Shown: positions 4,079 to 63,571 of the stretch, one piece after another
Numbering within the stretch: position 1 is the stretch's first letter
Layout: each line of letters starts with the position of its first letter
Virus record (IMG/VR): IMGVR_UViG_3300047667_001391
Length of the DNA stretch: 64,000 nt
Reading direction: 5' to 3' (one strand)
Source of the DNA: a virus
Lineage: Duplodnaviria; Heunggongvirae; Uroviricota; Caudoviricetes
Notes under the pieces: generated by a model
Seen by the model: only the letters and a program-made list of their open reading frames with translations
The model's database searches: none
Told to the model about the DNA's origin: nothing
Made by a program: the position numbers and the translations under genes

Positions 4079-4235
4079 ATTGAAATAGTTTACTTTTGTT
4101 ATTAGTTGATTAAAAAAGTTTACACTGGAATTTACATAAGCTACAATAAATATTCCAATGAAGAAAAATAGTAATTGTCTTTTAGTCTAACAGAGGAGGA
4201 AATAAATCATGCTCTAATTAAATATTAAAATTAGG

Positions 4236-4400: not shown

Positions 4401-4408
4401 ACCTCTCT

Positions 4409-4469: not shown

Positions 4470-4507
4470 AGCACAAAACACACCAAATAACCAAAATAGG
4501 AGAGAAA

Positions 4508-5056
4508 ATGTACAAAAATAAGTTATCTGAATATAAAATATTAGAGGAGGAGCGTAGATATTACGGGCATTTTGTATGTAAAATTGACTTCGTGAAATGG
4601 ATGTATGATAACACACAAGCATTTGAGCCGCGATGGTCTTCATTGATAAATTCTATGTCTACTGTAGAGAAATACATTATTACCAAACGCAAAAGAGTTT
4701 ATATACCTGAGTCGATGGGTAACCCATTCTTTTTGAATTATAAACCATTGCGGTCAATTCTCAATGAACATGGGGTGATAAATTTCCCATCTAATAGTAA
4801 ACGAAAACCTGATTTAAGATTAACTGGTGCATGTAAGAAAGAATTTGAAACTTTGATGGTGATGGTAAGTGCTGTCAATAAAGATAGATCAAGTGATGAA
4901 TTTTGGGAAGTTGTATTTTCTCCTATCCGGACTTCACTGAAGAGTAAACCTCTCAAAAATGGATTTGCTGTCAAAATCGTATATCCAGATAAAAGTGTGA
5001 CTTGTGTATATCACTTAATTGGTCGATATCACATTGCCACAAATGTATTAAATTAA
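4508..5056 (+). CDS. hypothetical protein
   Basis: 182-aa ORF with an SD (aggagag) 7 nt upstream, followed by a strong terminator. Confidence 0.55.
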   Translation: MYKNKLSEYKILEEERRYYGHFVCKIDFVKWMYDNTQAFEPRWSSLINSMSTVEKYIITKRKRVYIPESMGNPFFLNYKPLRSILNEHGVINFPSNSKRKPDLRLTGACKKEFETLMVMVSAVNKDRSSDEFWEVVFSPIRTSLKSKPLKNGFAVKIVYPDKSVTCVYHLIGRYHIATNVLN

Positions 5057-5086
5057 CATCAAAATTATACGCGGGTTTGCGGCATG

Positions 5087-5140
5087 TTATACGCGGGTTT
5101 GCGATTGTAAAATGTGGTTGCAAACCCGCGTATAATTTTT
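5087..5140 (+). terminator. rho-independent terminator: 16-bp stem (ttatacgcgggtttgc / gcaaacccgcgtataa), then TTTTT
   Basis: Perfect inverted repeat plus T-run. An extra direct copy of the left arm sits at 5065-5081. Confidence 0.7.
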
Positions 5141-5623
5141 GGCTTAAAGTCATATATAGCAATGGATGTAGAGGGAAAATCGAAAAAAAAATTGAAGTAG
5201 CCTATTATATATATGTTTTAAAATTAAGTTTTACTGTACATTTATCATATGTTCGGGAGTTTATGTTGAACGAATAAATATCGTTGCAACGCAACACGAA
5301 CGTAGTGAGAACAAACATTAATACCCTAAATGGTATATTAAATACAATATACCTTTGATGGTATATATCAACTGATGTTAAGGGTTTAATTCTTAACGCT
5401 CCGGTGGAACCTCCACTAAATTAAAATTACGTCATGCTTTCCGCTATCGCTACAAACACAACTTCATAATATGTTTTTGTAAAATAAATACGATTCAAAT
5501 AAATAAAATGCGGAGCATTATGGGAACGAGCGCGAAGCGATGGTTCACAATTAAATAAAATCTTTACTTGTTATGTGTTATATAATAAGATGTTGTTATT
5601 AAATCAGCTAAAGAGAAATCATA

Positions 5624-8210: not shown

Positions 8211-8213
8211 TGG

Positions 8214-8253
8214 TTTACTTTTACATTCAATCAGGTATCATATGCCTACTGAA
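8214..8253 (+). promoter_or_regulatory. sigma70-like promoter TTTACT-16-TATCAT followed by the conserved ACTGAA start region
   Basis: -35/-10 spacing plus ACTGAA 6 nt after the -10, as in the promoter family below. Confidence 0.4.
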
Positions 8254-8270
8254 ATTAAAGGGGTATTATT

Positions 8271-8474
8271 ATGATTACACTTGACCAATTACTTGAACTA
8301 AAAGAATCAGAATCTTGGGTGCCTGCTTGTGGTGGTACCGAAAAACAGTTTATTATTAAGGGTAGGACGGTGCAGTATATGTGGAATACATTTACTAAAG
8401 AACATACTTATTATGATGTTCTTCGTGATGTGTTTTTGGAAAATGACGACCTTAAAGAACTAGGTCTTTTGTAA
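8271..8474 (+). CDS. hypothetical protein
   Basis: 67-aa ORF with a GGGG SD. Confidence 0.5.
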   Translation: MITLDQLLELKESESWVPACGGTEKQFIIKGRTVQYMWNTFTKEHTYYDVLRDVFLENDDLKELGLL

Positions 8475-8489
8475 TTTTTAGGAGAGTAA

Positions 8490-9497
8490 ATGAGTAAATT
8501 ATTAGATCGAATGAAAAAGCTATCTACTGTAGTAGGTTCAAGTGCGTTATCTAAATCAGAATTTTTTAAATATGATGTAACTCCAACAGCCATTCCGATA
8601 TTAAATTTAGCGTTTGGTGGTTCGGTTTTTAGTGGGTTAACGGGCGGCATAACTATGTTGGCTGGTGAGTCAAGAACATTCAAAACTGGCTTATTAATTC
8701 AAATGGTTAAAGCATTTCAAGTTAAACATAAAACTGGTGTTTGTGTATTTTATGATAGTGAGTTTAGTTCTCTGGATTACTGGATTAGTGCAGGTATTGA
8801 TATGGACCGAATACTTCATACTCCAGTAGTTACTATTGATGAATTGAAACATGACATGGCCAAGTTATTGGATAGTATTGAGCCAGAAGATAAAATTATG
8901 TTTGTTTGTGATAGTATTGGTGGGCTTGCTTCCAAAAAAGAAGCCATGGATGCAGTCGAACGTGCTGACATGCCAGTTGATATGACCCGCGCCAAGACTA
9001 TGAATTCTTTGTTTCGTGTGGTTACTCCTGTATTAAATAAATTAAAAATAGATTTTGTACTGATCAACTCATTTTATGAAACAATGGATAAATACCCAAC
9101 CAGAGTTTATGCTGGTGGTAAGAAAGTGTTCCTATCCTGTGATGATGTTTTCTTTATTAGTCGCAGTAAGATTACACAAAAGGACACAAAAAAACTCGAT
9201 GGTTTTACATTTACTCTAAATGCAGATAAATCTCGTACCGTTATAGAGGGTAGTAAGTTTCCGATTGCAGTTACATTTCAAGGCGGCATTGATCGTTATT
9301 CTGGCCTATATGAATTAGCCAAAGAAGCTGGATTTATAGAAGTGTCCGGTGCTTGGGTTAAGTTAATGGACTTTGACACAAAGGTTATGGGTGGTAATGT
9401 GAGGGTTAAGGATATTAAGTCTGAATTTTATGAGGCATTAATAACTAACGATAAATTTACTGAGTTTGCATCAAAGAAATACAAACTAAATGGGTAA
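8490..9497 (+). CDS. uvsX: UvsX/RecA-family recombinase
   Basis: Co-linear with T4 UvsX: MSKLL..., a P-loop GESRTFKTG, VCVFYDSEFS, CDSIGGLASKKE, TRAKTMNSLFRVVTP and SRTV-EGSKF. Confidence 0.9.
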   Translation: MSKLLDRMKKLSTVVGSSALSKSEFFKYDVTPTAIPILNLAFGGSVFSGLTGGITMLAGESRTFKTGLLIQMVKAFQVKHKTGVCVFYDSEFSSLDYWISAGIDMDRILHTPVVTIDELKHDMAKLLDSIEPEDKIMFVCDSIGGLASKKEAMDAVERADMPVDMTRAKTMNSLFRVVTPVLNKLKIDFVLINSFYETMDKYPTRVYAGGKKVFLSCDDVFFISRSKITQKDTKKLDGFTFTLNADKSRTVIEGSKFPIAVTFQGGIDRYSGLYELAKEAGFIEVSGAWVKLMDFDTKVMGGNVRVKDIKSEFYEALITNDKFTEFASKKYKLNG

Positions 9498-10931
9498 TTG
9501 ATGAGTAGTGGAATAGCAGATGGGGAAATGGGGTCGATTGTACTCAATAATATAATTAACAACATTACATATGCCTCAAAAGTTTTACCGTACCTCAGTG
9601 CTGATTATTTTGTCGAGGAGACTGAGTGTTGTATTGCTCAAGTCTTGATCGACTATCACGCATTATATGGTAAGAGTCCAAACGTTAGAGAAATTGTGGT
9701 CGAACTTAAGGAATTACCACAGATAACCAAATTAGATAAAAATACAGTAAATGATGTACTCGGTAATGGTGCGTACATAGTAACTGATAATGAATGGTTA
9801 ACTAAGCACACCGAAAAATTTATACAACGCAGAAGGATAAGCCAAGCCTTCGAGAAAACATATGGTGATTTCGAAGCGGGTAATATTTTAGATTCGATAG
9901 CAAATGTATTCCAAGAAGCGTTATCATTTTCTTTTGATAATTCTATTGGTCATAACTTTATATTAGACAGTCATCTGCGATACGATTTATATTGTAGCGA
10001 AGAAGAAAGACTTAGCTTCTATCTTGAAATGTTAGATTTGGTCACAGATGGTGGTGTAGGTAAAGGTACATTGAATGTATTTCTTGCTGGTACTGGTGTA
10101 GGTAAATCTTTGCTGATGTGCTCTATTGCCGCAGCTCAAGCTATGGCAGGTAAAAAAGTACTCTATATATCATTAGAGATGGCGGAGCTGAAATTAGCAG
10201 AAAGATTAGAGTCTAATCTAATGGACGTACCATTAAACTCCTTGAAACATATGTCAAAAGAAGATTTTACTCTTCGTCAAAATATATACATAAAGAAAAT
10301 GGAAAGTTTGGGTGGGAATATAATATTCAAACAATATCCAACGAGTTCTGCCCACGCTGGTCATTTTAGAAATTTACTTATTGAATGTAAAAATAAATTA
10401 GATTTAGAATTTGATGTTATTTATATCGACTATCTAAATATTTGTGCAACTAATCGCGGTACTAACAGTGATAATTCTTACACTAAAGTTAAGAATATTG
10501 CAGAAGAAGTTAGGGCATTAGCTGTTGAATTTCAGGTACCTATTATTTCCGCAACACAAACAAATCGAAGTGGTCAGGAATCAAGCGATCTTAGTTTTGA
10601 GGATGTATCTGAATCACATGGCTTATCTGCTACTGTTGATTTATTATTTGGTCTAATGTCAAATGAAGAATGGGAGAAAACTAATAAAATAATGGTTGGT
10701 CAAATAAAAAATCGATACGGTGACCCTAACTATTATAAGAAGTTCATGATTGGTGTAGAGCGTAGTAAAATGCGTCTATATGATTTAAAACGGGAAGCAT
10801 CTAATGAAGTCAATTCTGGGCAATCGAGCAAAACAAATAGCACAGAAGGTGCGGATTTTGGTGCAATCGATTTGACAGTGCTTGGTGCATCTAGAGCTAA
10901 TTCATTAAACTTTGATAAATTAAAAACATGA
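9498..10931 (+). CDS. replicative DNA helicase, T4 gp41 / DnaB family
   Basis: GTLNVFLAGTGVGKS Walker A and YISLEMAE. The overall order matches T4 gp41, including the C-terminal IKNRYGD. Confidence 0.9.
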   Translation: MMSSGIADGEMGSIVLNNIINNITYASKVLPYLSADYFVEETECCIAQVLIDYHALYGKSPNVREIVVELKELPQITKLDKNTVNDVLGNGAYIVTDNEWLTKHTEKFIQRRRISQAFEKTYGDFEAGNILDSIANVFQEALSFSFDNSIGHNFILDSHLRYDLYCSEEERLSFYLEMLDLVTDGGVGKGTLNVFLAGTGVGKSLLMCSIAAAQAMAGKKVLYISLEMAELKLAERLESNLMDVPLNSLKHMSKEDFTLRQNIYIKKMESLGGNIIFKQYPTSSAHAGHFRNLLIECKNKLDLEFDVIYIDYLNICATNRGTNSDNSYTKVKNIAEEVRALAVEFQVPIISATQTNRSGQESSDLSFEDVSESHGLSATVDLLFGLMSNEEWEKTNKIMVGQIKNRYGDPNYYKKFMIGVERSKMRLYDLKREASNEVNSGQSSKTNSTEGADFGAIDLTVLGASRANSLNFDKLKT

Positions 10932-11191
10932 GAAATATGAGAAAAATTAAAATATATACTGCTGTTTGGTGCCCGTCATGTGTGATTTTACATGAATGGG
11001 TATCTAAAAAAATATTAGAAGGTCTGTCTATTGATGTTGAATTTGTTGATGTTGATGTAGAATTTCAAGAATTGATAGACCAAGAAATTAAAATAAAAAC
11101 CCTACCATCATCATTATATAATGGTCTATTGTATACTGGGAGTGATAAAATCAAGGAAATTATATTGAAAGCTGAAGTTAAAAATGATTGA
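10928..11191 (+). CDS. glutaredoxin/NrdH-like redoxin
   Basis: N-terminal beta-strand followed by a CPSC (CxxC) active site. The gene is immediately upstream of, and overlapping, nrdA. Confidence 0.6.
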   Translation: MRNMRKIKIYTAVWCPSCVILHEWVSKKILEGLSIDVEFVDVDVEFQELIDQEIKIKTLPSSLYNGLLYTGSDKIKEIILKAEVKND

Positions 11192-13058
11192 ATCATATTT
11201 AGGAATTGATATTGATTTAGCACGTGACGCTCTTTTACCTGAGCAAGGTAAGGTATTATTAACAAAAAAAGGGTTCTATAAAATGAACCACGAGACTAGT
11301 CCCCAACATGGTTTTGCTCGTGCAGCAACATCATATTGTTTCGGTGATTATGAACTAGCACAGCGTATATATGACGCTGCTAGTCTTGGATATTTCACTT
11401 TCGCTAGTCCGGTACTCAGTAACGCACAAGAAGTTAATTGGCCTTATATGAATGAGGAGAATGATTTTGAAAAGTTGGGGTTATGGTTAGAACAAAAAGT
11501 TAAACCACGTGGCATGCCAATTTCCTGTTTTCTTTCGTACATCCCTGACACTAAAGAAGGTTTAGTTAATGCAAACACGGAAACTAGATGGCTATCTATG
11601 CTCGGTGGTGGTATTGGAATATATCCATCTAATCGCTCACCTGACGCTAAATCTACTGGTGTTATGTCTCATCTTCGTGGTTATGATGCAGATGCATTAT
11701 CATATAAACAAACAGAAGCTCGTCGAGGTTCTATTGCAGCCTATATGAATATTGATCACCCTGAAATATTAACCTTTATTGACATGAGAAATCCAGTTGG
11801 TGGTGACTCAAACACAAAATGTTTTAATATTAATAATGGCGTAAATATCACTGATGATTTTATGTATAAAGTCATTGGCGGTGAAAAATATGAGCTGGTG
11901 GACCCCAAGCATGGCGGTACTGGTCGTATGTTAGATGCCCGTGAAGTTTGGGAAAAATTAATGGAAGTTCGTTTTGAGACTGGCGAACCTTATTTATTAT
12001 ATATTGATACCGTCAATCGAAACATACCCAAGCAAGTACGCAACCCGATGTATAATATAGTCCAGAGCAACCTATGTTCAGAAATTACGTTAATGACGTC
12101 AGAAAAAAGAACAGCTGTGTGTTGCCTATCCTCTCTTAATTTAGAAAAATATGACGAATGGAAGGATATAGGTTTAGTTGGCGATTTAATTCGTATGCTT
12201 GATAATGTATTGGAATATTTCATCAGGTTGGCACCACCAGAATTAAGCCGAGCTGTTTATTCAGCAAAAAAAGAACGTGCTTTAGGGTTGGGGACTTTAG
12301 GATGGCATAGTTATTTGCAATCCAAATCAATCCCATTTGAATCCGGTGGATTTAATAGTGCCATACAACACACTAATTTGATTTATAATAACATCAAAAA
12401 TCAGGCAGAAACCACATCAAAGTGTTTAGGTATAGAAAGGGGTGAATCTCCTGATTGCAGAGGTTCTGGGTTTAGAAATAGCCATCTTATGGCATTAGCA
12501 CCGAACGCGTCTAGCTCTCAAATGATTAACGTATCCCCTTCGGTTGAGCCATGGTCTGCTAATGCATTTGTTAGCAAAGGAAGAGCTGGTTTGTTTTTGA
12601 TTAAAAACAAACACTTAGATAAAATATTAACTCAATATGCAGCAGACATGAACAGCAATGATTATGACGAACAATGGTTGGCTGACATATGGAAAGATAT
12701 TATTGATAAAAACGGTAGTGTCCAACATCTAAATTTCTTATCTGAGCATGACAAGAAAGTCTTTAAAACATTCACTGAGATTGATCAAATGTGGGTGATT
12801 GAGCAGGCTGAGCACCGAACACCAAAGATTTGTCAGTCATCATCACTGAATATTTCGGTAGCCAAGGGAGTAACGCTGCAGGAAATGTCAGATATCCATA
12901 TGGCGGCGTGGTGGAAGGGAGTAAAGTCTTTGTATTACTGCAGAGCAGAGGCTGCAGTCCAAGCTAAAGTCTCTGATGGTGGAATCAAGGCACCGCTAAA
13001 TGCGGTTGCAGTTGAAACTGAAAATAAATATGAAGAATGTAGAAGCTGTGAAGGGTAA
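11184..13058 (+). CDS. nrdA: ribonucleotide reductase class Ia large subunit
   Basis: 624 aa with an ATP-cone-less N-terminus, the NLCSEI active-site region and a C-terminal CxxC tail (CRSCEG). Confidence 0.9.
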   Translation: MIESYLGIDIDLARDALLPEQGKVLLTKKGFYKMNHETSPQHGFARAATSYCFGDYELAQRIYDAASLGYFTFASPVLSNAQEVNWPYMNEENDFEKLGLWLEQKVKPRGMPISCFLSYIPDTKEGLVNANTETRWLSMLGGGIGIYPSNRSPDAKSTGVMSHLRGYDADALSYKQTEARRGSIAAYMNIDHPEILTFIDMRNPVGGDSNTKCFNINNGVNITDDFMYKVIGGEKYELVDPKHGGTGRMLDAREVWEKLMEVRFETGEPYLLYIDTVNRNIPKQVRNPMYNIVQSNLCSEITLMTSEKRTAVCCLSSLNLEKYDEWKDIGLVGDLIRMLDNVLEYFIRLAPPELSRAVYSAKKERALGLGTLGWHSYLQSKSIPFESGGFNSAIQHTNLIYNNIKNQAETTSKCLGIERGESPDCRGSGFRNSHLMALAPNASSSQMINVSPSVEPWSANAFVSKGRAGLFLIKNKHLDKILTQYAADMNSNDYDEQWLADIWKDIIDKNGSVQHLNFLSEHDKKVFKTFTEIDQMWVIEQAEHRTPKICQSSSLNISVAKGVTLQEMSDIHMAAWWKGVKSLYYCRAEAAVQAKVSDGGIKAPLNAVAVETENKYEECRSCEG

Positions 13059-22927: not shown

Positions 22928-23188
22928 ATGTCAGTTATAACTCTAACAACCAAACAAAGAAGTAAGATAAAAAGAGCTATAAAAGCACTTAATGATGTTA
23001 GACGAGAATTACAGAATGATAATAATGACTGTGATGTTCAATGGTATCTTGAAGACTCCGGAAACTTAAATTTAATGTCGGGCGACTCGCATGATGAAAC
23101 TAGTGGAAGTGGATACGGAGATACATCGAGGCAGGATAGAGTTATAGCTATATTCGATTTAGATAATGCTGGCGGGGGTGCGTGGTAA
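22928..23188 (+). CDS. hypothetical protein, paralog B of the duplicated small acidic family
   Basis: 86 aa. See paralog A. Confidence 0.55.
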   Translation: MSVITLTTKQRSKIKRAIKALNDVRRELQNDNNDCDVQWYLEDSGNLNLMSGDSHDETSGSGYGDTSRQDRVIAIFDLDNAGGGAW

Positions 23189-23670
23189 TGAATATTGGTT
23201 CTGGTTCTGGTTACCCAGAGAGTGCGTTATCTAATTTTGCTCCACATGCATTTGTGTTTGATGGTGTTGATTGCGCTAGCATGGAAGGTCTATTGCAGTC
23301 ATTTAAATTTAAAAATGAAATGATGCAGGCACACGTTTGTACCTTGGTGGGAAAGAAAGCTAAGTTTAAAGGTAAACCAAAAAAATGGTATAAGACGCAA
23401 ACTCTCTGGTGGAAAGGTTTGGAACTAAAAAGAAACAGTCAGGAATATCAGGGCTTATTAGATGCCGCATTTACTGCCTTGGCCACCAACACTAAATTTA
23501 TTAAGGCATTGACGGCTACAAATAATGCAGTACTAAAACATTCTATTGGTAAATCTGATATTAGTCGTACAATATTAACCACCTCAGAATTTTGTAGCCG
23601 ACTTACTAAAATTAGAGATGGAATAGAAATAAAACAAAATGAAGATTTTTGGTCGTTGTTTAATACTTAG
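23188..23670 (+). CDS. NADAR (YbiA-like) domain protein; candidate ADP-ribosyl / N-glycoside hydrolase
   Basis: SALSNFAPHAFVFDGVDCASMEGLLQSFKF matches the YbiA/NADAR core (SNF..W.I.VDG..W.TSEHYFQAQKF). The ATG at 23188 overlaps the upstream stop (TAATG). Confidence 0.65.
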   Translation: MNIGSGSGYPESALSNFAPHAFVFDGVDCASMEGLLQSFKFKNEMMQAHVCTLVGKKAKFKGKPKKWYKTQTLWWKGLELKRNSQEYQGLLDAAFTALATNTKFIKALTATNNAVLKHSIGKSDISRTILTTSEFCSRLTKIRDGIEIKQNEDFWSLFNT

Positions 23671-36343: not shown

Positions 36344-37513
36344 ATGACATCATTTGCATCACTTAAAAACAATAAATCAAATGCACTAGCTGGACTAAGA
36401 GAGAAAGTTCAGGCATCCGCTGCAGGAGAAGGGGGGACACCAAAAGACCCAAGAAAGTTTAAATTGACGTGGGACAAAAAAACACATATCGGCAGTGCAA
36501 TAATTCGGTTTTTACCGTTCGGTAATGGCGATAGATTGCCGTGGGCTGAATGGGCTGAATTTTCTTTTAAAGGTAAGGGCGGTAACTACTGGGAACGCTC
36601 TCGAAAAACTATCGGAGAGGATGACCCAGTGGCTGCACTAAACAAAGCGCAATGGGCGCGTGGCCAAGGCGAAGACGAAAATCAAGTTAAAAACCGTGGT
36701 CGTAGATTACGATATATATCAAATATCGTAGTGATTAGTGACCCAGAACACCCAGAAAATAACGGCCAGAATTTTCTATTTGAGTATGGACCAGCAATAC
36801 ATAAAATGATTATTTCTGCTATGGTACCTGAGTACGCTGACCAACAACCAGTAGAAGTTTATGATATGTGGAACGGTGCTACTTTCCGTTTACGCTCGAA
36901 AGACAAGGGTGGAAATGTAAATTACGACAGCTCTGCTTTTGATGCACCGTCGTGTCTACATGCAGATGACAGTATACTAGAAAGATTTTATAATGGTATG
37001 ATAGATCTATCTGAGTTTGAATCAGCAGATTTATGTAAAACATATGATGAATTAGACAAGTCGATGCGCAAAGTGTTGGGTGGTGCTTATTGTGCCAGTA
37101 TACTGGGTGAAACTATACAGCATGGTGGTGCTGACCCTGATAGCAATAATCCATTTAGTGAGATGCAGGGTAACCAAGGTAACCAAGGTAACCAAGGTAA
37201 CCAAGGCATTCAATTCGAGAAACACCAAGCTCAACAACCACAAGGTAACCAAGGTAATGCAGACCCTTTCGCGGATCAAGGTCAACAGCCACCTTTAGGG
37301 GATGATCCGTTTGCTAACCAACAACCACAAGGTAACCAAGGTAATGCAGACCCGTTTGCAAATCAGACCCAACAGAAGGCAGCAGGAGATGATCCGTTTG
37401 CTAACCAAAATCAGGGGCAGAGCAGCCAAGGACAGAGCAATGCAGATCCGTTTGCAAGCCAATCAAGTGACTCAAACTCAGATGACCCGTTTGCTGATAT
37501 GGATATGGGGTAA
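36344..37513 (+). CDS. ssDNA-binding protein (T4 gp32-like) with a repetitive acidic C-terminal tail
   Basis: AIIRFLPF and NIVVISDPEHPENNGQNFLFEYG match the gp32 core ([31 protein letters not shown]). The C-terminus carries 5x GNQ/GNQGN and 6x DPFA(N/D/S)Q repeats. Confidence 0.8.
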   Translation: MTSFASLKNNKSNALAGLREKVQASAAGEGGTPKDPRKFKLTWDKKTHIGSAIIRFLPFGNGDRLPWAEWAEFSFKGKGGNYWERSRKTIGEDDPVAALNKAQWARGQGEDENQVKNRGRRLRYISNIVVISDPEHPENNGQNFLFEYGPAIHKMIISAMVPEYADQQPVEVYDMWNGATFRLRSKDKGGNVNYDSSAFDAPSCLHADDSILERFYNGMIDLSEFESADLCKTYDELDKSMRKVLGGAYCASILGETIQHGGADPDSNNPFSEMQGNQGNQGNQGNQGIQFEKHQAQQPQGNQGNADPFADQGQQPPLGDDPFANQQPQGNQGNADPFANQTQQKAAGDDPFANQNQGQSSQGQSNADPFASQSSDSNSDDPFADMDMG

Positions 37514-52148: not shown

Positions 52149-52358
52149 ATGTTAAATGAAAAAATGAAATCGGTTATAGCTGCCTTACGTAATGGTAAAT
52201 ATAATCAATCTAAGGTTAGCCTGCAAGATTCTGATATGCAGTGCTATTTAGGTGTTTTATGTGACGAAAAGGAAACTGGGCATAAAAGTAGACGTAACTC
52301 ATCCCCAGAAATCGCTGTCGTTGATAACACAAACACAGAAGGATTACTTATATGTTAA
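52149..52358 (+). CDS. paralog-array member 1 (truncated, central segment deleted)
   Basis: Shares an N-terminus (M.NE.MK.V.AALR.GKY.Q) and a C-terminal EGLLI with the array family. Confidence 0.5.
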   Translation: MLNEKMKSVIAALRNGKYNQSKVSLQDSDMQCYLGVLCDEKETGHKSRRNSSPEIAVVDNTNTEGLLIC

Positions 52359-52699
52359 ACGAAAATATGAAATCGGTTATAGTTGCCCTACGTAGTGGTA
52401 AATACAAGCAGACCGTAGGTGCTTTACAAAATAGCTGTGGTCATTGCATACTTGGTGTAATTTGTGAGGTGTACGAAACAGACACTGGGGAAAGTCCAAA
52501 ACGTGATTTGCGTGGTCGATTAATAGGTGAAGATTTATCTAGCCATATGGATGTACAGGAGTGGGTGGGTTTAGTGGACGGTGACGGTGATTGCGGCATT
52601 AGTAGACCATCACTAATGACTATGAACGATATACACAAAAATACATTCTCGGAAATCGCTGATTTTATTGAGTCTAATCCAGAAGGATTATTAGTATGA
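52352..52699 (+). CDS. paralog-array member 2
   Basis: Conserved N-terminus MxNxNMKxVxVALRSGxYxQT..LQ.S.GHCxLGVxCEVYE, then WVGL and a C-terminal F.EIADFIE..PEGLLV. Confidence 0.65.
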   Translation: MLNENMKSVIVALRSGKYKQTVGALQNSCGHCILGVICEVYETDTGESPKRDLRGRLIGEDLSSHMDVQEWVGLVDGDGDCGISRPSLMTMNDIHKNTFSEIADFIESNPEGLLV

Positions 52700-53040
52700 T
52701 AAACAAAAATATGAAAAAAGTGTTGGTTGCCTTACGCTCCGGTGAATTTACACAAACTGTAGCAAAATTACAAGATAGTTCTGGCCACTGTTGTTTAGGT
52801 GTGATGTGCGAAGTTTATGAGAAAGAAACTGGTGATGAACTTCCGCGTGACCAATCAGATTTTTTAGTGGGCAATAATCTTAACGACCATCAAAATGCAT
52901 TACTTTGGCTGGGGCTAAGCAGCCCTCAAGGGCATAATGAGGTTGGTAGCAGCCTTATTTGCAGAAATGATTTTAATAGAAATACATTCTTAGAAATTGC
53001 TGATTTCATCGAATCTGAACCAAAAGGATTATTAGTATGA
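52696..53040 (+). CDS. paralog-array member 3
   Basis: Same family. ATGA overlap with its neighbours. Confidence 0.65.
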   Translation: MINKNMKKVLVALRSGEFTQTVAKLQDSSGHCCLGVMCEVYEKETGDELPRDQSDFLVGNNLNDHQNALLWLGLSSPQGHNEVGSSLICRNDFNRNTFLEIADFIESEPKGLLV

Positions 53041-53411
53041 TAAACAAAAATATGAAAAAAGTGTTGGTTGCCTTACGCTCTGGTGAATTCACCCAAGCCG
53101 AAGGTATGCTACAATGTTCTGGTGGCCACTGTTGTTTAGGTGTGATGTGCGAGGTTTATGAGAAAGAAACTGGTGATGAACTTCCACATAATAGCATGGG
53201 GTTTTTGGTAGGTGGGGATCTTGATGGGCAGTTTTTTGGTAAAGTAAAGAGTTGGGTGGGACTAAAAAGTTACTCTGGAAAATTTGTTGGTTCATCGGGT
53301 AATCCCAATACTCCCAATAATTCACTAGTGGATATGAATGACACATTAAATAAGTCATTCGATGATATTGCTGATTTCATCGAAACTGAACCAGAAGGAT
53401 TATTAGTATGA
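53037..53411 (+). CDS. paralog-array member 4
   Basis: Same family. ATGA overlap. Confidence 0.65.
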   Translation: MINKNMKKVLVALRSGEFTQAEGMLQCSGGHCCLGVMCEVYEKETGDELPHNSMGFLVGGDLDGQFFGKVKSWVGLKSYSGKFVGSSGNPNTPNNSLVDMNDTLNKSFDDIADFIETEPEGLLV

Positions 53412-53761
53412 TAAACGAAAATATGAAGAAAGTTTTAGTTGCCTTACGTTCCGGTGAATATCAGCAAACTAAATGTAAATTACAAGATAGTTATGGTCAC
53501 TGTTGTTTAGGTGTGATGTGTGATGTTTACGAAAAAGAAACTGGTGTCAAACTTCGACGAGATACTGATAATTATATAAATGGATACAGTCTTGTCTTTA
53601 TACAAGAAGTGCAGCAGTGGGTTGGATTAACTGATACACATGGTACATTTATGTCACCAAGTAAACCATACTCACTAGCGACGATGAACGATCTTGAGGA
53701 TAAAACATTCCTAGAAATTGCTGATTTCATCGAAACTGAGCCAGAAGGATTATTAGTATGA
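53408..53761 (+). CDS. paralog-array member 5
   Basis: Same family. ATGA overlap. Confidence 0.65.
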   Translation: MINENMKKVLVALRSGEYQQTKCKLQDSYGHCCLGVMCDVYEKETGVKLRRDTDNYINGYSLVFIQEVQQWVGLTDTHGTFMSPSKPYSLATMNDLEDKTFLEIADFIETEPEGLLV

Positions 53762-54093
53762 TAAACGAAAATATGAAAAAGGTTTTAGTTGCCTTACGTA
53801 GTGGTGAATATAAACAAACTCAATATAGATTACAAGATTCTGGTGGCCACTGTTGCTTAGGTGTGATGTGCGAAGTTTATGAGAAAGAAACTGGTGTCAA
53901 ACTTCCGCGAGATGGTGTATCAGGTTTTATAGTAGGTTCTAATCTTAATAAATTTCCGTTAGTAAAGAGCTGGGTGGGATTACACGAAGACATCGTAGCT
54001 GATGTTAATGCGAATATCGATTTACTGGTGGGTATGAATGACACATTTAATAATTCATTCGATGAAATCGCTGACTTCATCGAAACTGAATAA
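53758..54093 (+). CDS. paralog-array member 6 (C-terminus shortened by a small indel)
   Basis: Same family. Ends ...FIETE. Confidence 0.6.
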   Translation: MINENMKKVLVALRSGEYKQTQYRLQDSGGHCCLGVMCEVYEKETGVKLPRDGVSGFIVGSNLNKFPLVKSWVGLHEDIVADVNANIDLLVGMNDTFNNSFDEIADFIETE

Positions 54094-54104
54094 AAAGGAT
54101 TATT

Positions 54105-54458
54105 ATGATAAACGAAAATATGAAGAAAGTTTTAGTTGCCTTACGTTCCGGTGAATTCACACAAACAACATCAACCTTACAAGATAGTTGTGGTCACTGT
54201 TGTTTAGGTGTGATGTGTGAAGTTTACGAAAAGGAAACTGGTGTCAAACTTCCGCGAGATATATCAGGTTTTATAGTAGGTTCTAATCTTAGTGGTTTTC
54301 CTCTAGTAAAGAGCTGGGTGGGATTAAATAAAGACAACGATGCGGGTCATGCAGATGGCAGTATATATTCACTAGTGGATATGAACGATAGGCTCAATAA
54401 TACTTTCTTAGAAATTGCTGATCATATCGAGTCTCAACCAAAAGGATTATTAGTATGA
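54105..54458 (+). CDS. paralog-array member 7
   Basis: Same family. Confidence 0.65.
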   Translation: MINENMKKVLVALRSGEFTQTTSTLQDSCGHCCLGVMCEVYEKETGVKLPRDISGFIVGSNLSGFPLVKSWVGLNKDNDAGHADGSIYSLVDMNDRLNNTFLEIADHIESQPKGLLV

Positions 54459-54799
54459 TAAACGAAAATATGAAGAAAGTTTTAGTTGCCTTACGCTCCG
54501 GTGAATATAAACAAACTCAAGAATCGTTACAAGATAAATCTGGTCACTGTTGTTTAGGTGTGATGTGTGAAGTTTACGAAAAAGAAACTGGGGATACTAT
54601 CCCCCGTAGTAGTAGTGGACTTATTATCGGTGGTGATCTTGGTGTAAGACGCCAAAAAGTAAGACGCTGGGTGGGACTAAAACATCATAACGGTTCGTGC
54701 TTGGTTGGCAAATCACTAATTTCTATGAATGACGCAAATAAGTCATTCATAGAAATTGCTGATCATATCGAGTCTCAACCAGAAGGGTTATTAGTATAA
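54455..54799 (+). CDS. paralog-array member 8
   Basis: Same family. ATGA overlap. Confidence 0.65.
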   Translation: MINENMKKVLVALRSGEYKQTQESLQDKSGHCCLGVMCEVYEKETGDTIPRSSSGLIIGGDLGVRRQKVRRWVGLKHHNGSCLVGKSLISMNDANKSFIEIADHIESQPEGLLV

Positions 54800-58224: not shown

Positions 58225-59019
58225 ATGAATAATAAAATGAAGAAAGAAATAGAAGCTGGCGATATAGTCGTCGTTATTATGACCAACACACAACTGAAGG
58301 GAATTGGGTTAGATTTCACAACTAATATGGGGCAAGAATTCAAAGTCTTAGCTATATCAGCTGATAAGCAAAAATTACAGATTTATTGGGGCTGGATTAC
58401 AATTAAAGCATTTCGGTTAGTGAACCCAAACAAGTGGTCAATCTTTAATAATAAAATTAAATGGTGTGAGTTGGATGATGACCAGAAAAAGAGCTTGCTG
58501 CTTGCTGGGTATAATGGGCATAAATTTAAGTTAGATAATTCTAATCATAATTTATTTTTTACACCAAAATTTGATAGCCCAGAAGCAGTATATACTGTGG
58601 TTATTACAGATTCAGATAAAATATATAATGTAATTAAGCCAGATAAGGATTTATTAAAAGAACAAAGAGATGCTAATCATATATTATTAAGTGATATAGA
58701 ACACTATAAATCTGTGTGTGCGTCCAAGGACAAAGACATTAACACCCTTTATAATAAACTTTTAGCTGAAGAGAAGGAGAACTTAAAATTAAGAAAAACA
58801 GCCCAACCAAAACACTTAATATCTAAAGGTAAAAACAATAGCCATGCTGACAGTACAGCGCGAGACCTGATTAATCGTAATTCGGAACTGGAGCGGGTAC
58901 TTAAGCTTGTGCATTATGATTTACTTCTTCGCGCAGAGGAGGACTCAGATGGCGTTAAGGTGGTAGATGTGGGTTCATCGGTATGGGCTTCATTAAAGGG
59001 TGCCATTGGTCTAGCTTAA
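58225..59019 (+). CDS. hypothetical protein (C-terminal coiled coil)
   Basis: 264-aa ORF. Confidence 0.55.
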   Translation: MNNKMKKEIEAGDIVVVIMTNTQLKGIGLDFTTNMGQEFKVLAISADKQKLQIYWGWITIKAFRLVNPNKWSIFNNKIKWCELDDDQKKSLLLAGYNGHKFKLDNSNHNLFFTPKFDSPEAVYTVVITDSDKIYNVIKPDKDLLKEQRDANHILLSDIEHYKSVCASKDKDINTLYNKLLAEEKENLKLRKTAQPKHLISKGKNNSHADSTARDLINRNSELERVLKLVHYDLLLRAEEDSDGVKVVDVGSSVWASLKGAIGLA

Positions 59020-59040
59020 TTATTAAAAAACCCACCTATG
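59016..59040 (+). terminator. rho-independent terminator (aaaaacccac ctat gtgggtttttt)
   Basis: Hairpin plus T-run. Confidence 0.75.
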
Positions 59041-59055
59041 TGGGTTTTTTAATGC

Positions 59056-59096
59056 TTTACAATCCAATTTAGATAGGTATACTTACCTCACTAAAG
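59056..59096 (+). promoter_or_regulatory. sigma70-like promoter TTTACA-16-TATACT plus the leader TACCTCACTAAAG
   Basis: Near-identical to the 57351 promoter. Confidence 0.6.
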
Positions 59097-59120
59097 AAAA
59101 TCAACCAAGAGATTAAGCAA

Positions 59121-59471
59121 ATGGACAATAAAACAGTCGAATCTACCCTAAGTCATTCTATGCAGGCATGTGAATTACCAGAAAATGTATTTGTTTATAA
59201 CGCAGAAGAAGTAGAAGCGTTACTCGAAGAAAAAGATAATCTAATTGCAGCACAGCAACAAAATATTGTTGAGTTAGAAAAACAAATCGCTTATTATGTT
59301 ACTAACTCTGGGATAAATCGTGGAGTTATTCTTGATTTAAAAACAGAAAATAATATTTTACAAAATGAAGCAAAAACAAGACAGGAACAGTACGAGGAAG
59401 TGAGGAAGGCTGCACTTGTATGGAGAGGTGCGGCGGCTATAGCGGATAGGGATGGATGCCCGCACGTCTAA
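59121..59471 (+). CDS. hypothetical coiled-coil protein
   Basis: 116-aa ORF at the conserved leader position. Confidence 0.5.
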   Translation: MDNKTVESTLSHSMQACELPENVFVYNAEEVEALLEEKDNLIAAQQQNIVELEKQIAYYVTNSGINRGVILDLKTENNILQNEAKTRQEQYEEVRKAALVWRGAAAIADRDGCPHV

Positions 59472-59563
59472 TGAAATGAAATCCGAAATAGTGTTGACTA
59501 TACGCGACTGCACTGGTATTATCGGTAATACAGTCACAAAACAAAGCAGAAGGCGAAACACCC

Positions 59564-59773
59564 ATGGTCATATCATTAAAGATATTTCTCGCTCAAGTCA
59601 ACCTAAGTAAGAACTTTGTTACCTTAACAGAGGGTGTAAATAACGGGTTCATAATTTATCGAATTAAAAATCGAGAATTAGAATTAAATGCTCAAGTTGA
59701 CACCAAAGAATTTGAGTGGGTGTCACAAGAAGTAGCTGCCGATGGTACATTATCATATACTGGCAGTAAGTAA
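59564..59773 (+). CDS. hypothetical protein
   Basis: 69-aa ORF. Confidence 0.4.
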   Translation: MVISLKIFLAQVNLSKNFVTLTEGVNNGFIIYRIKNRELELNAQVDTKEFEWVSQEVAADGTLSYTGSK

Positions 59774-59798
59774 TTTTTAATAACTGGAGATAATAGTA

Positions 59799-60671
59799 AT
59801 GTTTAACGATATTAGGGTAATATTAAATAATAATGTGGGTATGAGTGTTATAGTCAGTCAGTTTAATGATGGGTCGGTTAATGTATGCCTACCACCTGAT
59901 GTACGCTGTCCGATTAGTGTGGGTTCGATTGTAGTGCGTGCTAAATTGACAAGTTCTGTTAGTTTAGTTGCATTGTTACTGACGGTTGATGCGTGTCGTC
60001 GGAAATTCCCAGATTTACAATTCATCTCTTTGGTTGCTCATTATATGCCATACGCAAGACAAGACCGTGTGTGTAATATGGGTGAGTCACTTTCGTCGAA
60101 AGTTATGGCTGGCCTTATTAATGGTTGTGGTTTTAGTAGTGTGACTATCGCAGACCCACACAGTGATGTGATGGTGGCGTTGATAGATAATTGTAAAGTT
60201 ATTAGTGCAGAAAGTATCATTGCTTCTAATGAAGTTCTATCTAATAGAATTATGGGTGGATTTTATACACTAGTTGCGCCGGATGCTGGCTCAAGAAAGA
60301 AAGTAGAAAAAATCGCAACACGTTTTGGACTCGATGGATTTGTGCAGGGGTCAAAACATAGAAACTTAAAGACTGGGGAATTGTCAGAAATAACATTTAG
60401 TGGTGATGTCCAAGATAAACATTGCCTTATCATAGATGATATATGCGATGGTGGTGGGACATTCGTTGGTCTAGCAGAAATAATGAAGGAAGCTGGGGCA
60501 CTTAGTGTAGATTTGTATGTGACACACGGGTTCTTTTCTCGTGGCACCGATACAGTAAATGGCGAAAATAAGGCAATAAACCAAATATTCACAACAGACT
60601 CAATTAGCAGAGACCAAGGCACACGTAAGTCTCTTAATATAATCGAAATAGGAAATAATAATTATGAGTAA
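59799..60671 (+). CDS. ribose-phosphate pyrophosphokinase (Prs)-family enzyme; candidate ADP-ribose pyrophosphokinase (Adps-like)
   Basis: FNDGSVNV, the YMPYARQDR flexible-loop region and a PRPP-binding CLIIDDICDGGGT motif, all co-linear with bacterial Prs. Confidence 0.8.
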   Translation: MFNDIRVILNNNVGMSVIVSQFNDGSVNVCLPPDVRCPISVGSIVVRAKLTSSVSLVALLLTVDACRRKFPDLQFISLVAHYMPYARQDRVCNMGESLSSKVMAGLINGCGFSSVTIADPHSDVMVALIDNCKVISAESIIASNEVLSNRIMGGFYTLVAPDAGSRKKVEKIATRFGLDGFVQGSKHRNLKTGELSEITFSGDVQDKHCLIIDDICDGGGTFVGLAEIMKEAGALSVDLYVTHGFFSRGTDTVNGENKAINQIFTTDSISRDQGTRKSLNIIEIGNNNYE

Positions 60672-62241
60672 CGTCGTACCAGCAACATTAGCAAAAGATG
60701 CATACAAGGCATTTCACCCATTAGCATATCACCCTGATGTCTCAGAAGTTTATGCAAATTACATAAATCGCTCTGGTCGTTTAAGTAATATACCAACTAA
60801 GATAAATCTTGGTGGTGTAGTTAATATTGGCGCACAAAGATTCTGTATGGATTTCTTAATTGGCGAGTTTAATGATACTTTCTTCAACCTAGATGAAGAT
60901 GTGGCCATTGAGCAGCATGCTCGTGTATTTAGAGCTATGTTAGGGCGAGCATTTAGCGACGAAAGACTACGTAAACTACATAAGTTGGGTTATCTTCCTC
61001 TTCGCCTTAAAACACTACCAGAAGGCACAATAACTCCGTATGGTGTTGCTAACATTACTGTGCGATCAACCAAATCTGATTTTCAGTGGTTAACAAACTC
61101 AATTGAAACTGTATTGAGCTGTGAAGTTTCTGGTATATCTACTTCATGCACCACAGCCACTGCATACCTAAAAACTTTTATTAAATATGCTCGACTCACT
61201 GGATTAGATGAAGAATTCTGTCAATTTCAGGGGCATGATTTTTCAATGCGCGGTATGATTTTTGGTCGACATGGCGCATACCTTTCTGGTTTAGGGCATC
61301 TTGCATCTGGCTTAGTTGGTACCGATACCATGGGTTCAGTTTTATTAGCCGAGAAATTCTATGGCGCAAACCTAGAAACTGAGTTAGTTGGTGTATCAGT
61401 TGATGCAACAGAACATAGTGTAACTTGTTCTTGGATCGAAGAAGGCGAAGAAGAGTTCTGTAAATATTTAATGAGTAAAGCTTCACCTTCCGGTATTCTT
61501 TCGGTAGTTGCTGACACTTGGGACTTTGAGAATTTTGTGTGCAATATTGTACCTAAATTAAAAGAAGCAATTATGGCACGTGATGGGTCGTTTATAATCC
61601 GCCCCGACTCTGGTTGTCCGGTCAAGGTATTAACTGGTTATACTAGCGAAGAAGTGAGCATGGATTATCGCGGTAAATTCTACCCACTTGATGATGATGG
61701 CGAAGTAGATTATTATTCTAAAGCCCTAACACAATTTGAAATTGATGGCCTCATTGAAACATTATGGAATCAATTTGGTGGCACACTAACTGATAAAGGT
61801 TATAAGCTTTTAGATGAGCATATTGGTGCAATTTATGGGGACTCAATTACATTAGAACGTCAAGAGCTAATCTTACAGCGTTTAATGGATAAGGGGTTCG
61901 CTTCTAAGGTTGTCCTTGGTATTGGTAGTTACACGTATCAACACGTGACACGCGACACACATGGCTCTGCAGTAAAAGCTACTAGTATGATTAAAGATGG
62001 CCGTCGCGTTGCTATATTTAAAGACCCTAAAGGTGATAGCAGTAAGAAATCCGCGAAAGGTTTGTTGTATGTTGGTCGCGATGAGAATGGTGTAATACAC
62101 CAATTTGATGATGTATCTGAGGAACACGAAAGAGAAGGTTTATTGGAAACTATATTTTTGGATGGTAAAATGGTTAAAACCACTACACTAAAAGAAATTC
62201 GTGCTCTAATTATGTCACAGCTCCAAACTCAACTTAAATAA
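60664..62241 (+). CDS. nicotinamide phosphoribosyltransferase (NAMPT/NadV)-family enzyme; candidate Namat-like
   Basis: DAYKAFHPLAYHPDVSEVYANY, GHDFSMRG, IIRPDSGCP and GIGSY are co-linear with the NAMPT motifs DSYK, GYRG, RPDSG and GSGGG. It overlaps the Prs-like gene by 8 nt. Confidence 0.8.
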   Translation: MSNVVPATLAKDAYKAFHPLAYHPDVSEVYANYINRSGRLSNIPTKINLGGVVNIGAQRFCMDFLIGEFNDTFFNLDEDVAIEQHARVFRAMLGRAFSDERLRKLHKLGYLPLRLKTLPEGTITPYGVANITVRSTKSDFQWLTNSIETVLSCEVSGISTSCTTATAYLKTFIKYARLTGLDEEFCQFQGHDFSMRGMIFGRHGAYLSGLGHLASGLVGTDTMGSVLLAEKFYGANLETELVGVSVDATEHSVTCSWIEEGEEEFCKYLMSKASPSGILSVVADTWDFENFVCNIVPKLKEAIMARDGSFIIRPDSGCPVKVLTGYTSEEVSMDYRGKFYPLDDDGEVDYYSKALTQFEIDGLIETLWNQFGGTLTDKGYKLLDEHIGAIYGDSITLERQELILQRLMDKGFASKVVLGIGSYTYQHVTRDTHGSAVKATSMIKDGRRVAIFKDPKGDSSKKSAKGLLYVGRDENGVIHQFDDVSEEHEREGLLETIFLDGKMVKTTTLKEIRALIMSQLQTQLK

Positions 62242-62251
62242 TAAATAAGGC

Positions 62252-62292
62252 TTTACATTTTGTTTCAGTTAGGTACAATTACCTTTCTGAAA
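62252..62292 (+). promoter_or_regulatory. sigma70-like promoter TTTACA-16-TACAAT plus the leader TACCTTTCTGAAA
   Basis: Member of the conserved promoter/leader family. Confidence 0.55.
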
Positions 62293-62317
62293 CAAAACAA
62301 CCCCAAGTGAGATTAGA

Positions 62318-62446
62318 ATGAAAAATAAATACAGATTTGAAAGTGGCTCGGTTTATGAATTCGATGAAGAAAGTAATGCTTACATTTTCATCGGTAAGCT
62401 CAATGGTCGCACAAAGAAACAATTTCTTGCTGACTGGTCTTACTAG
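62318..62446 (+). CDS. small hypothetical protein (42 aa)
   Basis: ATG exactly at the conserved leader position (gagattagaATG). Below the track threshold. Confidence 0.3.
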   Translation: MKNKYRFESGSVYEFDEESNAYIFIGKLNGRTKKQFLADWSY

Positions 62447-62459
62447 GGGGAATAACATC

Positions 62460-62990
62460 ATGAAAAACTTTTATATTATAGGTATGCCACGATGTAGGTC
62501 ATTGTGGTTTGCTCATCTACTCACAGTCAACAAAGTACATTGCTTTCATGAAAGGCTAAGTAAACGTAGGCTATGGCCAAATCCAACGCTCCCTAAGAGC
62601 ATGCACTACAAATGTGATGTAATTGGGTCAGCTGATACATATCCGAGCGGATTTGACGCAGAATTAGTAGGTAACGCACCTGTTGTTGTCATAACAAGAC
62701 CACTAAATGATGTTTTAATGTCACTCTCTAAAAATTTTGAGCTACCCGCATCACACAAATCTTATAGTTACATTAAGAGCGAGTATGCTGTTTTAAATTC
62801 AATTAAGACTGATAATATGATGACTGTCGATTTCTCTGAACTAAACTGTGTGTATAAAATTAGAGAAATATGTGATTTTATTGGCGTGACTTTATCACTA
62901 AGACATATCAGAAGATACGTGAATAGTAAAATTACCGTGGATAATAAACAGGTGATGATGTCAAACCATGCATTTTTGGATAATTTATAA
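62460..62990 (+). CDS. hypothetical protein (weak sulfotransferase-like N-terminal P-loop GMPRCRSLW)
   Basis: The internal ATG at 62460 follows the small ORF. The track ORF start at 62337 overlaps that small ORF in another frame. Confidence 0.45.
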
Positions 62991-63571
62991 TGAATGACTT
63001 AAAGATTAATTTTGGCCGAGAAGTTGTACCATACGATGATATTAAAACACTAGAAGATGTCGAAGAAGCACTTTTAGTATATACTAGTAGCATGAGCCGA
63101 CACGACCTTATGTATAAAAAAGCTGAACTAAACTCACTGAAGGGTAAGATGGACGGGCACTGCAATGTTACGCAATGCCAAAAGCCTCATGCTATTATGT
63201 GGAATAATGGAACAAATGCTTGGTATTGTAAAAGCTGCGCAGAAGATATTAATAATTCATGCAGGTTCAGTGATTTTTGGCCATTGTGTGTGTCAAAACA
63301 AACTCAACTAGATAAGTTGTCTGAGCGAGATTTACTGTATGTTGGGCACGAAGACCAACTACCACCGTTAAATGATATCAATTTTCATAACCACTCACGT
63401 CATCCCAATAAAGTGCCAAGCTCAAGGAGCTACGATAATTTTTATTACCATAAAATTGGTTTTGAGAAAGCTAAAGTGCCATACAAAAGAGAGTTGGCTA
63501 AAATAGGCCGTAATGCACCATGTCCATGTGGCCGTGGATTAAAATATAAAAAATGTTGTGGGAGAAAATAA
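62990..63571 (+). CDS. SEC-C motif (zinc-binding) domain protein
   Basis: The C-terminal [15 protein letters not shown] is the SecA-C-terminal-type metal-binding motif. Additional Cys/His clusters occur upstream. Confidence 0.55.

Follow-up and report, generated by a model that had tools for sequence, protein, structure and literature searches.

What does a phage gain from a gene that resembles a phosphoribosyl pyrophosphate (PRPP) synthetase (Prs) followed directly by one that resembles a nicotinamide phosphoribosyltransferase (NAMPT or NadV)? The question is raised by an overlapping gene pair, here called ORF A and ORF B (ORF, open reading frame), in a stretch of 64,000 nucleotides (the window) from IMG/VR record IMGVR_UViG_3300047667_001391, an uncultured tailed phage of the Caudoviricetes with a T4-like replication module. 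According to Osterman et al., phage pairs annotated as 'Prs' and 'Nampt' are Adps, which uses ADP-ribose (ADPR) and ATP to make ADPR pyrophosphate (ADPR-PP), and Namat, which converts this intermediate into NAD+; together they form the NARP1 system. The Adps clade stands apart from Prs, and Namat is adjacent in 97% of cases, while true phage Nampts, such as NadV of KVP40, form another clade, go with Nmnat (NARP2), and never occur with Adps. Judged by its sequence, the pair in the window is very likely a minimal two-gene NARP1 cassette made of Adps and Namat. It is a divergent new example of the system already described and not a new kind of system, and we infer its reactions and its anti-defence role from the homologues in SPbetaL1, Bas63, FADO, and ICP1. 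A NARP1-type reading had been proposed in an earlier note on this DNA, and residue signatures, clade placement, and conserved gene pairing now support it. The alternative named there, plain Prs and NadV salvage, is disfavoured, as both proteins fall on the NARP1 side of the signatures used to separate the two, which were published after the original discovery of NARP1.

Both genes are intact in the ORF listing, lie on the plus strand, and start with ATG. ORF A (59799-60671, 290 aa) is adps-like and is predicted to be an ADP-ribose pyrophosphokinase (ADPR + ATP -> ADPR-PP + AMP), and ORF B (60664-62241, 525 aa) is namat-like and is predicted to be a nicotinamide ADP-ribose transferase (ADPR-PP + nicotinamide -> NAD+ + PPi). 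They share an 8-nt overlap on the plus strand, ATGAGTAA (60664-60671), which can be read directly in the sequence; the ATG of ORF B is embedded in the final codons and stop of ORF A, and the junction reads …TATGAGTAA…. The two ORFs are exactly where the earlier note had placed a Prs-family gene followed, across an 8-nt overlap, by a NAMPT-family gene, and all four motifs it had cited are present: ORF A contains CLIIDDICDGGGT, and ORF B contains DAYK, QGHDFSMRGM, and IIRPDSG. Shine-Dalgarno-like sequences on the plus strand precede both genes, GGAG (59786-59789) 9 nt 5' of the ORF A ATG and AGGA (60650-60653) 10 nt 5' of the ORF B ATG, the latter within the ORF A coding sequence. The overlap is compatible with translational coupling, and the two genes are probably coupled in this way. 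Scans around the pair found 26 promoters (18 +/- 4.9 expected from shuffled sequence) and 2 terminators (2.5 expected), neither above expectation, and therefore no transcription unit is claimed from them.

ORF B matches PF04095 (E 4e-30) and phrog_448 (E 1e-161) and exceeds the cut-off of NF006629 (E 1.6e-125, 419 bits; cut-off 405). Its best solved relative is 9w5x/9w5w (373 bits; mammalian NAMPT scores 164 bits), and PDB 9w5x is 100% identical to a gene product of Bacillus phage SPbetaL1. The catalytic core is intact, with D12, Y14, F193, R196, D221, H251, R313, and D315 compared with D13', Y15', F189, R192, D215, R306, D308, and the catalytic His of SPbetaL1 Namat. At 43-44% identity to that protein, ORF B conserves or conservatively replaces all of its contacts with nicotinamide, nicotinamide mononucleotide (NMN), and AMP (R40 to R39, F392 to Y423, and T398-R399-D400).

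The feature that sets Namat apart is a 'selectivity clamp' composed of a helix (SCH) and a loop (SCL), which stacks on the adenine of ADPR-PP and was defined by Lan et al. 2026 (PMC12774641). The clamp comes together across the dimer, with a ligand. In the alignment, the SCH motif of ORF B is G421-S-Y-T-Y-Q-H427-V-T-R-D431 (61924-61956, plus strand), canonical at 10 of 11 positions. In SPbetaL1, FADO, ICP1, and a Felixounavirus, this segment reads GS[FY]TYQY[NVM]TRD, and the Nampts of T4-like phages, the KVP40-type locus L100, and mammalian NAMPT have GG[GA]LLQxxTRD instead. The SCL is the beta1-beta2 loop, whose stacking residue is an Arg, Lys, or Tyr (PMC12774641); in ORF B it aligns at residues ~35-51, NRSGRLSNIPTKINLGG (60766-60816, plus strand), where R39 aligns with the adenine-stacking R40 of SPbetaL1 in both HMMER and MAFFT, and it is 6 residues longer. 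A 33-residue insertion relative to SPbetaL1 Namat, at residues 327-359 (61642-61740, plus strand), follows the RPDSG strand and appears in both the two-segment PDB alignment and the multiple alignment; it is likewise an insertion relative to ICP1 NrsB. Homologues in Slickus01 and Felixounavirus bear variable insertions at the same site. In a neighbour-joining (NJ) tree of 120 sequences with 100 bootstraps, Nampt-type and mammalian sequences split from all Adps-associated sequences in 100/100 replicates, and ORF B falls in a 17-member clade with ICP1 NrsB in 99/100. That ORF B is a Namat-type protein is thus well supported by clamp and tree. A further member of the Namat side of this tree is PDB 9ke8/9keo, a solved 'nicotinamide phosphoribosyltransferase'. 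It shares 42% identity with ORF B, its SCH is the atypical GAQTYQRNTRD, Glu occupies the SCL position, and no phage match to it rises above 55% identity.

ORF A matches the Pfam domains Pribosyltran_N, Pribosyltran, and Pribosyl_synth (E 2e-10 to 3e-9), phrog_619 (E 6e-77), and TIGR01251 'ribose-phosphate diphosphokinase' (E 5e-40, 137 bits; cut-off 113). The family assignments of both ORFs are far beyond chance. However, ORF A scores below every NCBIfam Prs equivalog cut-off, reaching 75-130 bits where 296-536 are required. Liu et al. 2026 solved the structure of ICP1 Adps, whose contacts are F18', R87, F92, H121, D161, K185, D212/213/216, the PP-loop 215-220, and F221/223, and named a missing C-terminal alpha11-alpha12 module, which PRPS has, as a 'defining evolutionary signature' of Adps (PMC13586617). 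The ICP1 residues used here were taken from that paper and from the ICP1 sequence, the solved PDB relatives found being PRPS only. In an alignment with the Adps proteins of ICP1, SPbetaL1, and FADO and with E. coli Prs, ORF A lacks ~20 N-terminal residues of Prs and the entire C-terminal alpha11-alpha12 segment, and at 290 aa it is short at both ends relative to E. coli Prs (315 aa). An AF2 model (pLDDT 93.2, pTM 0.90) gives a PRPS-like two-domain fold with zero helices past residue 254 and two short strands up to the C-terminus, and its top Foldseek matches are PRPS1 and Prs (TM ~0.75, 22-26% identity).

The active-site residues of ORF A agree with an Adps assignment. The catalytic beta-hairpin aligns at residues ~184-200, SKHRNLKTGELSEITF (60348-60398, plus strand), and contains K186 within SKHRNLKTGE (a KxR[DN]xxTG hairpin), which corresponds to K185 of ICP1 Adps and K162 of SPbetaL1, where Prs has DKRRPRxN. 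K186 is invariant across 95 ORF A homologues, and a catalytic role of the hairpin lysine has been described (PMC13586617 and bioRxiv 10.1101/2024.02.11.579819). The PP-loop, DDICDGGGTF (residues 213-222; 60435-60464, plus strand), aligns with DDMIDTGGTL of E. coli Prs and is identical to the consensus of the same 95 homologues. ORF A keeps the acceptor-groove residues R87, H121, D162, D213, D214, and D217 as well as C216, D217, and F222 of the donor loop and Phe lid, while the position of ICP1 F223 is Gly. At the three ADPR-adenine contacts the picture is mixed, with F22 (for ICP1 F18') and R87 present and Cys in the place of F92. An Adps profile built without the window protein and its nearest relative scores ORF A at 265.6 bits and E. 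coli Prs at 142.6. The 120 best relatives of ORF A among 5.8 billion proteins searched are all 212-313 aa long, shorter than E. coli Prs; because all of them are short Adps-like proteins, the outgroup of the Adps tree stayed at two, E. coli Prs and a partial human PRPS1. These two split from 80 Adps-like sequences, the window protein included, in 100/100 bootstraps. ORF A is accordingly well supported as an Adps-type protein by its residues and truncated architecture. With this split and that of ORF B from the Nampts, the tree check called for in the earlier note has been run, and it places both proteins apart from the canonical enzymes.

The same comparisons bear on canonical salvage, in which ORF A would genuinely be a PRPP synthetase and ORF B a genuine Nampt/NadV producing NMN, with NAD+ finished by the host (NadR/PncC) or by a phage Nmnat, as in NARP2-like pool boosting. 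The database names agree with this explanation, since the TIGR01251 and NF006629 cut-offs are both exceeded, and the catalytic cores of both folds are intact. Nevertheless, ORF A misses all Prs equivalog cut-offs along with the alpha11-alpha12 module, and ORF B lacks GG[GA]LLQ and is split from mammalian Nampt and from L100, taken as KVP40. Published work further found that SPbetaL1 Adps yielded no PRPP-type product, and Nmnat/CTP_transf_like, NadR, and Nudix domains were not found in the window ORFs or in the 2.6 kb beyond. Taken with the gene pairing described below, these points make canonical salvage very unlikely.

Gene pairing was assessed in IMG/VR loci from an alignment-based scan, a single-protein scan having returned only 2 loci. 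Among Namat-type loci with >=1.5 kb of upstream sequence, an Adps-like gene (>=200 aa) lies near the Namat-type gene in 71 of 72, and the 72nd (L078) has a frameshifted Adps. By contrast, none of 30 Nampt-type phage loci has an Adps/Prs-like gene nearby, which argues against salvage. The two genes are <=50 nt apart in 41 of the 71 paired loci and overlap in 18. The six loci most similar to the window share only ORF A and ORF B with its neighbourhood, and the pair therefore moves as a cassette. The closest deposited relatives share its gene order; by tblastn these are Alishewanella phage Slickus01 at 56% identity and Vibrio phage ICP1 at 49% (52% in the alignment, for ORF B). Megablast of positions 59000-63000 against 50,697 phage records gave zero matches.

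Several loci from these searches merit description in their own right. In Vibrio phage ICP1 isolate 2017_Mat_I (L002, ~4000-5464), an in-frame stop follows Namat residue 28 (…PEVTHV*SNFTNRHG…), and the record annotates just the truncated Namat ORF; this is consistent with the report that NAD+ regeneration works in only some ICP1 isolates. The T4-like Aeromonas phage 65 (L011) has an Adps-like gene at 8001-8792 and, ~1.5 kb away, a split and divergent Namat-side homologue at 10207-11737 with an atypical SCH (GSWGFLKNASRD); this pair may be a decaying or specificity-shifted NARP1. Additionally, a small HAD-like protein (FDFDxT; weak PF00702 match) is encoded between or beside adps and namat in 7 IMG/VR loci (L004 9514-9942, L045 8857-9276, and L066 2604-3023; also L030, L048, L053, and L086). 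The profile for the Macro-domain Adpp matches 18 ORFs in the loci examined, of which two belong to Nampt-type loci. The HAD-like protein, which is separate from the Macro Adpp and goes unmentioned in the aRES/NARP1-AP preprint, may be a second kind of NARP1-associated phosphatase.

Among characterised systems, the ICP1 pair NrsA/NrsB (Adps/Namat; gp228/gp229) is a close counterpart. It has been shown genetically and biochemically to be NARP1, its Adps has been characterised structurally and biochemically (PMC13586617 for the structure), and it counters Nezha/SIR2-HerA and DSR2. The gene order is the same, and ORF B falls in the clade of NrsB. In the multiple alignment, ORF A and ICP1 Adps share 34% identity (44% over a 178-residue local BLASTP segment), and ORF A keeps K185, R87, H121, D161, D212, D213, D216, C215, and F221 of the ICP1 enzyme. 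The PP-loop residues A218, A219, and S220 of ICP1 are replaced by G, G, and T, the family consensus, and F92 by Cys. In the clamp, ORF B has His instead of Tyr at SCH position 7 and Arg instead of Lys-Tyr in the SCL. Furthermore, the adps stop in ICP1 precedes the Namat reading frame by only ~30 nt, whereas ORF A and ORF B overlap, and the ICP1 backbone is unrelated to that of the window. The SPbetaL1 NARP1 (PDB 9w5w/9w5x) likewise has adps followed by an adjacent namat with overlapping stop and start. ORF A is ~32% identical to SPbetaL1 Adps, with DDICD in the PP-loop in place of DDLSS, and ORF B differs from SPbetaL1 Namat at the clamp (Y396 to H427) in addition to its longer SCL and its insertion. 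Genes 79-80 of Bas63 (JohannRWettstein) form the same two-gene operon and were compared through a congener, Felixounavirus KhF1, as proxy. The KhF1 proteins are 41% identical to ORF B and 35% to ORF A, and the KhF1 Namat has the SCH GSYTYQYMTRD and an insertion at the site of the ORF B insertion, but a much longer one.

Other NAD+-restoring systems fit the window less well. NARP2 of KVP40 (NadV Nampt and NatV Nmnat) is also a phage strategy for restoring NAD+ and shares the NAMPT fold and catalytic residues with ORF B. However, the KVP40-type locus L100, ~28-30% identical to ORF B, has GGGLLQQLDRD instead of the Namat clamp and no Prs-like neighbour, and NARP2 needs an Nmnat; none of these points fits the window. 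NARP2 was rejected on the grounds that ORF B lies outside the Nampt clade and that an Nmnat was not found in the window or the next 2.6 kb, and NARP3 (PnuC and NadR) because neither domain occurs in the window. The extended forms NARP1-AP (Adps-Adpp-Namat, Vibrio phage Gary) and RyDEP-extended NARP1 (mycobacteriophage DyoEdafos) have the same Adps and Namat core. They were set aside as well, as Macro Adpp and RyR (PF02026) domains were not found in the whole window, and Macro, HAD-like, and RyR genes were not found in or around the pair. Pfam searches of the window ORFs found no Nmnat/CTP_transf_like, NadR, PnuC, Nudix, Macro, or RyR domain, and none of these was found in the 2.6 kb past the window end (L121, 10.6 kb, from the SRR28417389 Logan assembly). 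The exact ORF B protein is also reported on a contig of 50-200 kb. Macro and HAD-like profiles built from other NARP1 loci gave nothing in the six-frame window (best E 0.24). Since no Nmnat, NadR/PnuC, Macro, or RyR was found in the window, the cassette is taken as the minimal two-gene NARP1, a form that is predicted not to respond to ADPR-1''-P (aRES) or cyclic-ADPR signals.

By analogy with these homologues, the pair would act downstream of host immunity. A SIR2, TIR, or SEFIR effector would split NAD+ into ADPR and nicotinamide. ORF A would then move the beta,gamma-pyrophosphate from ATP onto the 1''-OH of ADPR, helped by K186, to give ADPR-PP, and ORF B would swap the pyrophosphate of ADPR-PP for nicotinamide, yielding NAD+ directly. 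The phage would thereby be able to replicate where the host is armed with Thoeris type I, DSR1/2, SIR2-HerA (Nezha), or a similar system. ADPR and nicotinamide are the exact products of SIR2/TIR/SEFIR NADases, so NAD+ would be restored only when such a defence fires. A cassette without Adpp should fail against aRES, which makes ADPR-1''-P.

Several observations weigh against the NARP1 assignment. Namat retains some PRPP-to-NMN activity in vitro (PMC12774641), which is also what canonical salvage would draw on, and ORF B may make a minor salvage contribution. The search for an Nmnat covered the 64 kb and ~2.6 kb (L121) of a genome that is probably larger. ORF A is early-branching and on a long branch in a distance tree rooted by two Prs sequences, and its placement within the Adps side is uncertain. 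Cys92 replaces ICP1 F92, one of three ADPR-adenine contacts. Finally, SCH position 7 of ORF B is His where the published motif expects an adenine-stacking aromatic (Tyr/Phe); L003, a relative 75% identical to ORF B, has Tyr there.

His427 and Cys92 are minority states, and they raise the idea of a decayed or specificity-shifted NARP1, in which the Y-to-H clamp change and the F92-to-C change weaken or alter adenine recognition and leave the pair inactive or acting on another nucleotide-ribose. Natural loss does occur, as seen in the Namat stop of ICP1 2017_Mat_I and the frameshifted Adps of L078. Nonetheless, both ORFs of the window are intact with all catalytic residues, and single clamp mutations, Y396K included, cut SPbetaL1 Namat activity just ~1.3- to 1.7-fold (PMC12774641). 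His occupies SCH position 7 in 4 of 82 other Namat-type sequences, recurring independently in four loci that keep an intact Adps. Other homologues, among them the validated Adps of SPbetaL1 and FADO, have Met, Cys, or a gap at the position of ICP1 F92; as this position varies even there, it is not family-defining. Decay is therefore extremely unlikely. A further reading, in which an early-branching Adps (Cys92) and a His-type Namat clamp with extended SCL together have a broadened or shifted substrate range, has only a slim chance of being right. If it were true, the Adps might still pyrophosphorylate ribose-5-phosphate in addition to ADPR, or the clamp might suit a modified or non-adenine nucleotide-ribose, and the cassette would bridge NARP1 and PRPP-based salvage.

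The chemistry of NARP1 might also serve another purpose. The pair could recycle ADP-ribose from phage or host NAD+-consuming reactions as housekeeping and not as counter-defence, a role that Osterman et al. raised for bacterial NARP1. The location of the pair within a nucleotide-metabolism and replication block would suit such a role, as would the chromosomal relatives of ORF A, which occur in NrtR-linked operons with a Namat-type partner, NrtR being an ADPR-responsive regulator of 'prs-nadV' operons (PMC2330246). However, the published pairs of Bas63, FADO, SPbetaL1 (as an operon), and ICP1 alter the outcome only under NAD+-depleting defences, and the pair moves between unrelated phage backbones as a cassette, which is typical of accessory counter-defence genes. 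A housekeeping purpose consequently seems improbable, and counter-defence by a NARP1 cassette is the preferred reading.

The bacterial operons deserve attention of their own. NrtR-regulated 'prs-nadV' operons were described in Shewanella, Chromobacterium, and Cytophaga (Rodionov 2008), and protein P0096 of Chromobacterium sp. CV08, a short 'Prs paralog' of Adps-like type, is 43% identical to ORF A. The operons differ from the phage cassette in being chromosomal, in having an ADPR-responsive repressor, and in sometimes including further genes for ADP-ribose processing; presumably they serve housekeeping or are tied to RES toxins. In Chromobacterium sp. CV08 (L122, CP150453.1, 7167-11549) and Psychroserpens luteus (L123, 7245-13236), the ORF A relatives adjoin an NrtR-type regulator (Nudix and winged-helix), and the partner has a Namat-type SCH (GSFTYQYNTRD or GSFVYGMNSRD). 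In Chromobacterium, a Xre-RES toxin-antitoxin pair comes next, and in Psychroserpens the two are separated by DUF4291, ADP-ribosylglycohydrolase, Metallophos, and NADAR genes.

Around the pair, the window forms a T4-like block of genes for replication and nucleotide metabolism. Its replication genes encode a family-B DNA polymerase, gp32, gp59, gp44/62/45, UvsW, UvsY, a Dda-like helicase, gp46/47-like proteins, and RNase H, and its nucleotide-metabolism genes encode NrdAB, Td, and dCMP deaminase; a T7-like RNA polymerase, PIN-PhoH, and a CCA-adding enzyme are also encoded. The DNA polymerase is <=55% identical to deposited phages, its best matches being ~100-kb vibriophages such as henriette 12B8. 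The genes on either side of the pair are of unknown function, and two genes 3' of it a 193-aa protein (62990-63571), likewise without assigned function, carries a C-terminal SEC-C zinc-binding motif (PF02810, E 8e-9). The T7-like single-subunit RNA polymerase (5811-8210; PF00940, E 2e-77) beside a T4-like replication module is an unusual combination. The gp32-like ssDNA-binding protein (36344-37513) carries a long tail of low complexity made up of (GNQ)n and DPFA(N/D)Q repeats, and TRF reports an 87-bp period x 2 in its gene at 37232-37408. Eight tandem paralogous genes of ~111-124 aa at 52149-54799 belong to the function-less family phrog_18067 and share the motif MINENMKKVLVALRSGE..Q...LQDS.GHCCLGVMCEVYEKETG…; TRF finds a 350-bp period x 3.6 copies (76% matches) at 53320-54591. 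At the window start, a perfect 10-bp tandem repeat, GTATGGTCCG x 9.6 (positions 13-108), and 40/80-bp AT-rich repeats (282-429) may signal the end of the genome, an origin, or regulatory DNA. A gp30.3-family protein is encoded at 23182-23670 (PF08010, E 2e-52), a family we take to be related to NADAR ADP-ribose-processing domains; in Aeromonas phage 65, the gp30.3 gene (L011 7156-7605) lies two genes upstream of the Adps-like gene.

Finding NARP1 here leaves the current picture of NAD+-centred phage-host conflict unchanged and extends the system to a phage lineage that lacks a close deposited relative, with a DNA polymerase <=55% and a Namat <=56% identical to any on record. Two residue signatures, the Namat SCH/SCL clamp and the loss of alpha11-alpha12 together with the DDICDGGGTF loop in Adps, suffice along with gene pairing to re-annotate 'Prs/NadV' pairs. 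The NARP1 chemistry would, moreover, explain why a dedicated 'prs' paralog, together with nadV, is under the control of an ADPR-derepressed regulon, a question dating from 2008 (PMC2330246), a housekeeping role being only hinted at by Osterman et al. The natural His variant at clamp position 7 offers a ready probe of the Tyr/Phe requirement. For the phage itself, the predicted phenotype is resistance to SIR2-, TIR-, and SEFIR-type NAD+ depletion but not to aRES, which is not expected because Adpp was not found.

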